From positions 32,001 through 96,000 of the forward strand of contig JAHPZE010000001.1 in assembly GCA_019058365.1 (NCBI GenBank): a stretch of DNA of 64,000 nucleotides, in the 5' to 3' direction. This DNA is from Promethearchaeota archaeon. GTDB lineage: Archaea > Asgardarchaeota > Lokiarchaeia > Sigyniarchaeales > SOKP01. The notes under the pieces were generated by a model. That model was given only the letters and a program-made list of their open reading frames with translations, did no database searches and was not told where the DNA came from. The position numbers and the translations under genes were made by a program. Below, piece after piece: positions 41,888-44,243 of this stretch. The first letter of the stretch is position 1, and each line of letters begins with the position of its first letter.

Positions 41888-42916
41888 CTATAAAAGAAAT
41901 TTTTTCAAAATCTTATCATTTTCTATTTCAATGGTCATTTCTTTTGTTAAATTGTTATAATCAGTTCCATAGATAACTTGACCTTTTAATTGATTAAAAT
42001 CAGAATACCGTAAAGTCAAGGATGCAGCAAATTTTAATGAATTTTTATTATAATCTTCTTGTACAAGTGTAATTGGTCCGGGAACTCCTTTAGCTTCAAA
42101 TATTAAATCACTTGGTTTTTTGAGAGTTAGTAGTTTATTATTTTCGAATTCATTTCTTCCTACTATAATTTTTGTATTTTTATATCGGAAATGACGTCCT
42201 ACTTTTAAAAAATTTATATCTTCAATTTTTGGCTTTTTATGAAATTTGAGATAATCATTCATACGATTTGTAAAATTCTCATCTGTTAGGAGGCATCCTC
42301 CACAAGCATAATAATTATCTAATAATCCATGGGTTCTTGCAATCTCCATTTGGATTTTTCTACCCCTTCCTTTTATTCCTAGTAATAGTTTTCGATCAAT
42401 TAATCCTTGCTCTTCATAAATAGTGGGTTTTAGCTGGAGAGCAGATAAGGGTCTTAAAAGTCTACCTTCCAGACCTGCTTCTTTCTCAACAATCCTTAAC
42501 GCTCTCAAATGTTGGGATTTTGGTCTCTGATTTAGAACTTCTCCAGTGAATATCAAATTGGCTTTTATTCTTTTCATGAATTCTTTTGCTTTCTTTAAAA
42601 TGTAAATTCTACAATCTATACAAGGATTTAAGTGTTTACCATACCCAAATTTAGGATTTCGAATCAATTCTAAAAAATCTTCTCCTAATGGCAAATAATA
42701 TATTTTAATTCCCAGTTTTTCTTTAAATAAATCTAAATTGCATTCTACATTTGTAGATTCTCTATTATATTGACAAAAGGGTGAGATAAAGTTTAAACCA
42801 ATAACATTAATTCCTTGTAATTGCATTATATGACAAGCTATTAAACTATCTAAACCCCCCGATACTAATCCAAGCCCAGTTAATGTCTTACCGATATTGT
42901 ATTTTTCATTGATCAT
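41888..42916 (-). CDS. PP-loop tRNA thiouridylase-like protein (ThiI/MnmA-related, DUF814-type)
   Basis: SGGLDS, NPCIDC, TGEVLNQRPKSQ, LRPLSA, GGCLLTD, GRHFR. Confidence 0.85.
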   Translation of the reverse strand: MINEKYNIGKTLTGLGLVSGGLDSLIACHIMQLQGINVIGLNFISPFCQYNRESTNVECNLDLFKEKLGIKIYYLPLGEDFLELIRNPKFGYGKHLNPCIDCRIYILKKAKEFMKRIKANLIFTGEVLNQRPKSQHLRALRIVEKEAGLEGRLLRPLSALQLKPTIYEEQGLIDRKLLLGIKGRGRKIQMEIARTHGLLDNYYACGGCLLTDENFTNRMNDYLKFHKKPKIEDINFLKVGRHFRYKNTKIIVGRNEFENNKLLTLKKPSDLIFEAKGVPGPITLVQEDYNKNSLKFAASLTLRYSDFNQLKGQVIYGTDYNNLTKEMTIEIENDKILKKFLL

Positions 42917-44130: not shown

Positions 44131-44243
44131 GCCAGTGTATCCGAGTAGTTAAGGAGGCGGCCTATAGAGCTTAAAACTGACTCTAGCCGAAGCAGAGCCG
44201 TTGCTTTTCAGCATCGTGGGTGCGAATCCCACCGCTGGCTCCA
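44131..44243 (+). tRNA. tRNA-Cys(GCA) with 28-nt intron (44164-44191, position 33/34), long variable arm and encoded CCA
   Basis: Acceptor GCCAGTG/CGCTGGC, U73, CCA; anticodon stem GCGGC/GCCGT; BHB CGGC-CU^A / GCCG-AA^G; spliced loop CU-GCA-GA; T arm GTGGG-TGCGAAT-CCCAC. Confidence 0.88.

Follow-up and report, generated by a model that had tools for sequence, protein, structure and literature searches.

The gene at positions 44131-44243 of the window, the whole 64,000-nucleotide stretch of DNA analysed here, is very probably a functional tRNA-Cys(GCA) gene of a Loki-type Asgard (Promethearchaeota) genome, apparently the only one in that genome, charged by CysRS and serving its ordinary function. 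It shares the GCA anticodon, U73, G1-C72, G37 and the 7/5 architecture with canonical class I archaeal tRNA-Cys(GCA), it is orthologous to the class I genes of its relatives, and its genome encodes CysRS. It differs from the canonical form in having a 14-nt paired variable arm rather than a loop of 4-5 nt, A18/G55 rather than G18/U55 and an intron at 33/34 rather than 37/38. Which class a tRNA belongs to is regarded as almost invariable for a given amino acid; tRNA-Tyr is the exception, of class II in bacteria and of class I in other organisms.

A run of the Rfam tRNA model over the whole genome identified 44131-44240 as a genuine tRNA gene, RF00005 scoring 41.2 bits with the intron in place against a cut-off of 29; the encoded CCA extends it to 44243. 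ARAGORN folded the spliced sequence into the full cloverleaf of a tRNA-Cys(GCA), with a mature length of 82 nt, or 85 nt with CCA (Table 1). U73 and G1-C72, the major CysRS elements, G37 and the anticodon GCA are conserved in every Promethearchaeota orthologue. The original prediction of a tRNA-Cys(GCA) carrying these elements therefore agrees with the sequence, with the intron-less orthologues and with ARAGORN on the spliced form. A Cys-specific covariance model (R1) gave 65.9 bits at the locus, the next-best match in the genome being a tRNA-Gly at 51 bits. Both default ARAGORN and an Rfam scan of the window missed the gene, and ARAGORN with introns allowed (-i) miscalled it as tRNA-Tyr(AUA). 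This is an annotation trap: standard tools overlook the gene or name it Tyr(AUA), so that genomes of the group will seem to be without tRNA-Cys.

Table 1. Elements of the tRNA-Cys(GCA) gene, numbered by position in the window
Feature	Position	Strand	Details and evidence
5' exon	44131..44163	+	Sequence; equals query 1-33 of intron-less orthologues; ARAGORN cloverleaf of spliced form
Acceptor stem, 5' strand	44131-44137	+	7 bp with 44233-44239; followed by U8 A9
D arm	44140-44155	+	3 Watson-Crick pairs and G13.A22; D loop AG (A18 = 44147, G19 = 44148) where GG is usual; followed by G26
Anticodon stem, 5' strand	44157-44161	+	Pairs with 44197-44201; followed by C32 U33; spliced loop CU-GCA-GA
Intron	44164..44191	+	28 nt, between positions 33 and 34; BHB scan, MFE fold, exact absence from 8 intron-less orthologues
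3' exon	44192..44240	+	Sequence, ARAGORN spliced form, intron-less orthologues, 3'-exon alignment
Anticodon GCA	44192-44194	+	Followed by G37 A38
Anticodon stem, 3' strand	44197-44201	+
Variable region	44202..44215	+	14 nt; 4-bp hairpin 44202-44205 with 44210-44213, loop 44206-44209, then UC
T arm	44216..44232	+	Stem 44216-44220 with 44228-44232 (5 bp); T loop UGCGAAU; G55 = 44222 instead of U55
Acceptor stem, 3' strand	44233-44239	+
U73	44240	+
Encoded CCA end	44241..44243	+	Sequence; some orthologues encode CCA, others do not

The limits of the intron were set by comparison within the genus. Orthologues in eight genomes (G001, G002, G004, G008, G019, G021, G022 and G024) lack it, query bases 1-33 abutting 62-113. 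Because all eight join bases 44163 and 44192 directly, the junction 44163|44192 and the anticodon GCA are fixed. A scan for bulge-helix-bulge (BHB) motifs ranked best the one that cleaves at this exon junction, with a central helix of four G-C pairs (44158-44161/44186-44189), 3-nt bulges at 44162-44164 and 44190-44192 and a 5-bp inner helix h' (44165-44169/44181-44185); the MFE fold of the precursor has the same helix, bulge and helix. In G005, G098, G015 and G101 an intron occupies the same site, with h' helices that are different in sequence and fully complementary and with a conserved intron 3' end. The predicted intron and spliced loop are thus borne out by orthologues and BHB geometry. 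The motif had also been described as strict, which it is not: the outer helix is a single pair (G27-C35) where the hBHBh' form requires two or more pairs beside the 3' bulge, and the motif belongs to the relaxed HBh' type. We propose that the precursor would fold into this relaxed BHB, that the archaeal splicing endonuclease would cut after 44163 and after 44191, and that ligation would then yield the mature tRNA. Apart from the single outer pair, there is no essential difference from the non-canonical BHB introns of archaea, Asgard included, which likewise have 3-nt bulges around a 4-bp helix, lie outside 37/38 and are patchily present among close relatives (PMC4090602; bioRxiv 10.64898/2026.10.13.758758).

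An alternative BHB, with an intron at 44164-44202 that leaves a 71-nt 'Ser(GCU)' molecule, was ruled out, as its anticodon stem is poor and the intron-less orthologues disagree with it. The same orthologues, in giving a 33/34 junction and the anticodon GCA, refute the reading returned by ARAGORN -i, a tRNA-Tyr(AUA) with a canonical 37/38 intron of 17 nt and an unstructured variable region of 25 nt. That model is also without a BHB, has A34 in its anticodon and requires an implausible variable loop, and we regard its probability as next to nil.

Most of the recognised tRNA genes of this genome (G000) are interrupted by at least one intron at a non-canonical site, such as the D loop, the T loop or 33/34, and what ARAGORN labelled 'tRNA-Cys(ACA)' at C39:246289-246392 becomes a tRNA-Pro(UGG) after BHB splicing. 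A separate observation concerns rpoA1, encoding RNA polymerase A' (C52:1872-4538), which has a 30-nt insertion (C52:2085-2114) within the conserved GHFGH|IEL motif that ends in an in-frame TAA. The nearest relatives G005, G098 and G078 lack the insertion, and G101 has a different sequence there with the hairpin kept. Its boundaries correspond exactly to a relaxed BHB with a 4-bp helix, a 6-bp inner helix and two bulges of 3 nt, and it resembles an mRNA intron of BHB type, for which cbf5 provides a known precedent (PMC2738675). Stops and extra length were also seen in rpoA1 of several other relatives.

With 14 nt and 4 bp, the variable region is of class II type, for which more than 10 nt and a paired stem-loop are the mark. 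All four pairs of the hairpin are standard in 26/26 distinct long-arm orthologues in the 3'-exon alignment (A1), so that 100% of cells are paired; in six slid controls, in which the partner columns were moved 1-3 positions either way, pairing falls to 36-74%. Among these 26 sequences the innermost pair changes between U-A and C-G in six and the next pair between C-G and G-C in one. The two outer pairs show one-sided wobble changes only (U-A to U-G, G-C to G-U). Sequences from two sister-family genomes have U-A at the third pair, and some long-arm alleles have a GAAA or GCAA loop of the GNRA type. The 4-bp variable stem of the original prediction is therefore confirmed by pairing and compensatory changes throughout the orthologues. 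Judged by its 100% pairing, its compensatory changes and the GNRA-type loops of several alleles, the hairpin is a real helix under selection.

The hairpin is probably retained in the mature tRNA. A different explanation is that it is a second intervening sequence, the removal of which leaves an ordinary class I tRNA-Cys. Introns do occur at many unusual sites in the tRNA genes of this lineage, a preprint describes insertions in the variable region of Asgard tRNA genes (bioRxiv 10.64898/2026.10.13.758758) and close relatives have alleles without the hairpin. However, the extra segment of 7-10 nt is smaller than the minimum of about 10-14 nt that we estimate for a BHB intron, the BHB scan found no motif with supporting helices across it, and it is not a clean insertion, the 3' tail being AUC in long alleles but AUUC in short ones. 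A structural hairpin that is kept would also agree with the stable tetraloops and the compensatory changes in the stem. Removal of the hairpin is in our judgement highly improbable.

By BLAST, an orthologue of this tRNA-Cys was found in 97/135 species genomes of the family, with all 13 genera represented. This spread and the RF00005 score put the gene well outside what chance would give. The variable region is a long arm in 51 of the 97 and a 5-nt loop, mostly UAUUC, in the other 46; both forms coexist inside four genera, including the genus of this genome. The sister family showed the long arm in each of its three typed genomes (3/3), and it was not seen outside these two families of one Asgard order among the matches listed outside the class. 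As far as sampled, then, the allele is confined to two families of a single Asgard order. At least eight changes of state of the arm are needed on an rpoA1 tree of 101 genomes. Identical arm alleles turn up in clades far apart and on different backbones, which hints at replacement of alleles rather than repeated mutation. The best reading of the hairpin is a polymorphism of the lineage, with no sign of a changed genetic code or of Ser/Cys ambiguity. It had been held at the outset that the case would lose its force if a long-arm tRNA-Cys charged only by CysRS/SepRS were already documented as standard; the arm does turn out to be standard in the lineage (51/97, and three more in the sister family), and no paper describing it was found.

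The elbow of the tRNA is a separate matter. G18 G19 in the D loop is a near-general rule among tRNAs and the G18-Psi55 contact is near-universal. Among the 36 T arms found in the genome, G55 occurs at this locus only. An alignment of 48 intron-less tRNA-Cys genes (A2) has A/G at positions 18/55 in 43, G/U in five and no mixed case, which bears out the suggestion that the double change is compensatory; three genes (G006, G147 and G026) combine C18 with U55. Among the matches listed, A18/G55 is also present in class I tRNA-Cys of Caldarchaeum, Micrarchaeota, Nanohaloarchaea, Pacearchaeota, Woesearchaeota and a Methanosarcinales MAG. The pattern scan was diluted by chance bacterial matches, and the non-Asgard sequences were selected on G55 and not on A18, so that their A18 is an independent observation. 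On the evidence of these comparisons, A18/G55 is a genuine covariation, old and widespread in archaeal tRNA-Cys and independent of the long arm. We propose that this pair would replace the G18/(Psi)55 elbow contact.

How the tRNA is charged was approached through the enzymes encoded in the genome. There is a full-length, intact CysRS (512.7 bits to TIGR00435) with a PF01406 catalytic domain and a DALR_2 anticodon-binding domain, and CysRS is intact in 117/135 genomes of the family. In genome searches SepRS was absent, its best match of 67 bits lying far below the cut-off, as was SepCysS; these outcomes answer the proposed check for cysS, sepS and pscS. The original prediction left it undecided between a tRNA still read by CysRS/SepRS and one chargeable with serine, as part of an indirect route to cysteine or of Cys/Ser ambiguity. 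Reading by CysRS fits the intact enzyme with its DALR_2 domain. Since SepRS and SepCysS are absent, neither the SepRS route nor a SepCysS-dependent Ser-to-Cys route is available, and serylation finds no support in a tRNA with U73 instead of G73. Direct cysteinylation by CysRS with normal decoding is the simplest reading, given an incomplete tRNA census: the class I CysRS would charge the tRNA directly with cysteine, and UGU/UGC would be read as Cys. The hairpin may be tolerated because CysRS, like other class I synthetases, comes to the tRNA on the side that does not carry the variable region.

A long variable arm is a main recognition handle for SerRS, and one explanation for the hairpin is that it makes the tRNA a SerRS substrate. 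Cysteine codons would then be ambiguous as serine, or a Sec-like route through SerRS, PSTK and a SepSecS/SepCysS-type enzyme would produce Cys-tRNA-Cys. The arm has the size and layout of the same genome's own tRNA-Ser variable arms, and some recognition by SerRS is conceivable on sequence grounds. Genes for SerRS, for SepSecS (480 bits) and for a protein resembling PSTK (150 bits, below the cut-off) are also present, so that the genome has selenocysteine machinery. PSTK requires the tRNA-Sec fold with its 13-bp acceptor domain, however, and this tRNA has a 7/5 fold and a 3-bp D stem. In archaea the 13 bp of the tRNA-Sec acceptor domain are divided 9/4 (PMC7609411; PMC5389517). G73 is a recognition element for SerRS (PMC7609411) and is present in the tRNA-Ser genes of this genome, whereas the discriminator here is U73. 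In place of G73, a Ser anticodon or UCA, and 9/4 in the case of Sec, the gene thus has U73, GCA and 7/5. The absence of SepCysS and the wide retention of intact CysRS in the family also argue against the serine route, as do close relatives with a 5-nt loop that share the Cys identity set; gain and loss of the arm go with no visible shift in the charging machinery. We consider charging with serine very unlikely, and direct charging by CysRS remains our preferred reading.

In this genome cysS lies on contig C37, away from the tRNA-Cys gene, and its product belongs to a lineage that shares only 40% identity with the CysRS encoded next to the tRNA in relatives. There are two lineages of the enzyme with only this degree of identity, represented by L021:1501-2913 (-), which is G000:C37:41772-43184, and by L003:1652-3088 (+). 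The former, not linked to tRNA-Cys, is the type of this genome and of most members of its genus. The latter is encoded directly downstream of tRNA-Cys in the other genera and in the SepRS-positive clade of this genus, the orthologous tRNA-Cys thus lying directly upstream of cysS in many relatives, and G015 and G020 have both types of CysRS.

No second tRNA-Cys was detected in the genome. BLAST with the tRNA-Cys genes of the family matched just the two exons of this gene in G000, neither the type B tRNA-Cys described below nor an extra tRNA-Cys of G048 had a match, and a covariance model built from tRNA-Cys genes found this locus as the only tRNA-Cys. The search for another copy that had been recommended was therefore negative by BLAST and covariance model, within a tRNA census that is incomplete because the tRNA genes are heavily interrupted. 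Some 36-40 genes were recognised in this intron-rich genome, a heavily interrupted second tRNA-Cys could be missed, and expected anticodons such as those for Phe, Tyr, His and Asn were not found by any method used. A BHB-aware splicing census recovers many tRNAs and is ambiguous for genes with several introns.

Many relatives do have two tRNA-Cys genes, as a model search across the class revealed. Their second gene (type B; for example L369 in G012, L370 in G088, L371 in G129, and L375-L378) is canonical and class I, with G18 G19, U55 and a 4-bp D stem. It is present in 33/135 genomes of the family, of which 31 are SepRS-positive, and this suggests that separate tRNA-Cys genes travel with CysRS and with SepRS. 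A third type, seen in L372 (G065) and L374 (G051), has a different acceptor stem, also with G55 and a D loop without GG. The second tRNA-Cys of G048 was set aside as probably foreign; it lies on a 3.6-kb contig with other tRNA matches and is unique to that MAG. The same MAG contains a tRNA with a CUA (amber-reading) anticodon, labelled tRNA-Pyl by ARAGORN (L239, G048:C246:3771-3865).

In raw counts the long arm goes with loss of SepRS. SepRS was found in 3/51 long-arm genomes (two intact, in G048 and G072, and one fragment with a stop) and in 35/46 short-loop genomes, and type B in 0/46 of the long-arm genomes in the tree and in none of the long-arm genomes overall. SepRS itself changed state at least nine times on the rpoA1 tree of 101 genomes. 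Independent contrasts on that tree between long arm and SepRS loss gave about 1.8 in the same direction, 1.3 in the opposite direction and 2.9 without difference. Those between type B and SepRS gave 3.2 in the same and 0.5 in the opposite direction (p about 0.4), and those between the long arm and loss of type B gave 2.7 and 0 respectively (p 0.25). The link between long arm and SepRS loss, strong in raw counts, does not survive phylogenetic control; the association was set aside, the contrasts not being significant, and is kept as a lead only. Perhaps the allele spread in lineages which, like this one, lost SepRS/SepCysS and the accompanying canonical tRNA-Cys; such relaxed constraint once SepRS was lost has no statistical support under phylogenetic control.

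Another possibility is that the elbow change and the hairpin act as discriminators, tying the window gene and its orthologues (type A) to CysRS and keeping them apart from a type B charged by SepRS/SepCysS, with only the CysRS half surviving here. The frequent position of type A beside cysS, the near-confinement of type B to genomes with SepRS and its absence from the long-arm genomes in the tree are consistent with this. Against it, the hairpin occurs most often in genomes without SepRS, which would have no need of discrimination, and the independent contrasts are few and not significant. In methanogens with both CysRS and SepRS, one tRNA-Cys serves both. A discriminator role thus seems unlikely to us. 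We are equally doubtful of its evolutionary form, in which the family ancestor would have run two parallel cysteine systems, type A (A18/G55, beside cysS) with CysRS and type B with SepRS-SepCysS, in which the elbow and later the arm would be identity or anti-identity elements, and of which this genome would keep only the CysRS half. Direct charging of an arm-polymorphic tRNA-Cys by CysRS is preferred to both.

Bacterial selC* tRNA-Cys, the nearest parallel in print, likewise combines the Cys identity elements U73 and GCA with a long variable arm, but it has a tRNA-Sec-like 8/4 form with lengthened acceptor and anticodon stems, in some cases with A1:U72 and the anticodon UCA, and it occurs as extra copies linked to selB* and cysS* (PMC5389517; PMC7609411). 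The gene described here has a 7-bp acceptor stem and a 5-bp T stem and is apparently the sole tRNA-Cys. No selB*/cysS* linkage was found at the locus, next to which a ThiI/NFACT-R_2 protein, an amidohydrolase and ORFs without a Pfam family are encoded. The first of these, about 1.2 kb upstream of the tRNA (window 41888-42916, - strand), has ThiI/tRNA-methyltransferase-like HUP and NFACT-R_2 RNA-binding domains. Archaeal class II tRNAs (Ser, Leu and Sec) are similar in their variable region, which is 13-14 nt long and has a stem of 3-4 bp, and in a 3-bp D stem with G13.A22. They differ in that this gene has a Cys anticodon and U73, where position 73 is G in the tRNA-Ser genes and A in the tRNA-Leu genes of this genome, and in that close relatives are without its arm. 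Neither a long arm nor G55 is mentioned in published work on how Cys-tRNA is formed in Asgard and other archaea (PMC5424206; PMC9499178), and Cys does not figure in a 2026 preprint about the tRNA introns of Asgard archaea (bioRxiv 10.64898/2026.10.13.758758). No paper on a long-arm tRNA-Cys or on A18/G55 in archaea was found in the open-access literature, and an earlier description elsewhere is possible.

If the family ancestor did run two cysteine systems, these lineages would offer natural orthogonal tRNA/synthetase pairs for one amino acid, and a transition from class I to class II tRNA would have been caught between sister species. Independently of that scenario, a housekeeping tRNA-Cys switches between class I and class II forms among species of one genus while its Cys identity set is kept. 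The family thus provides a natural experiment on how SerRS and LeuRS reject a long-armed non-cognate tRNA, on how much of the tRNA core CysRS reads, and on the replacement of the G18-Psi55 contact.
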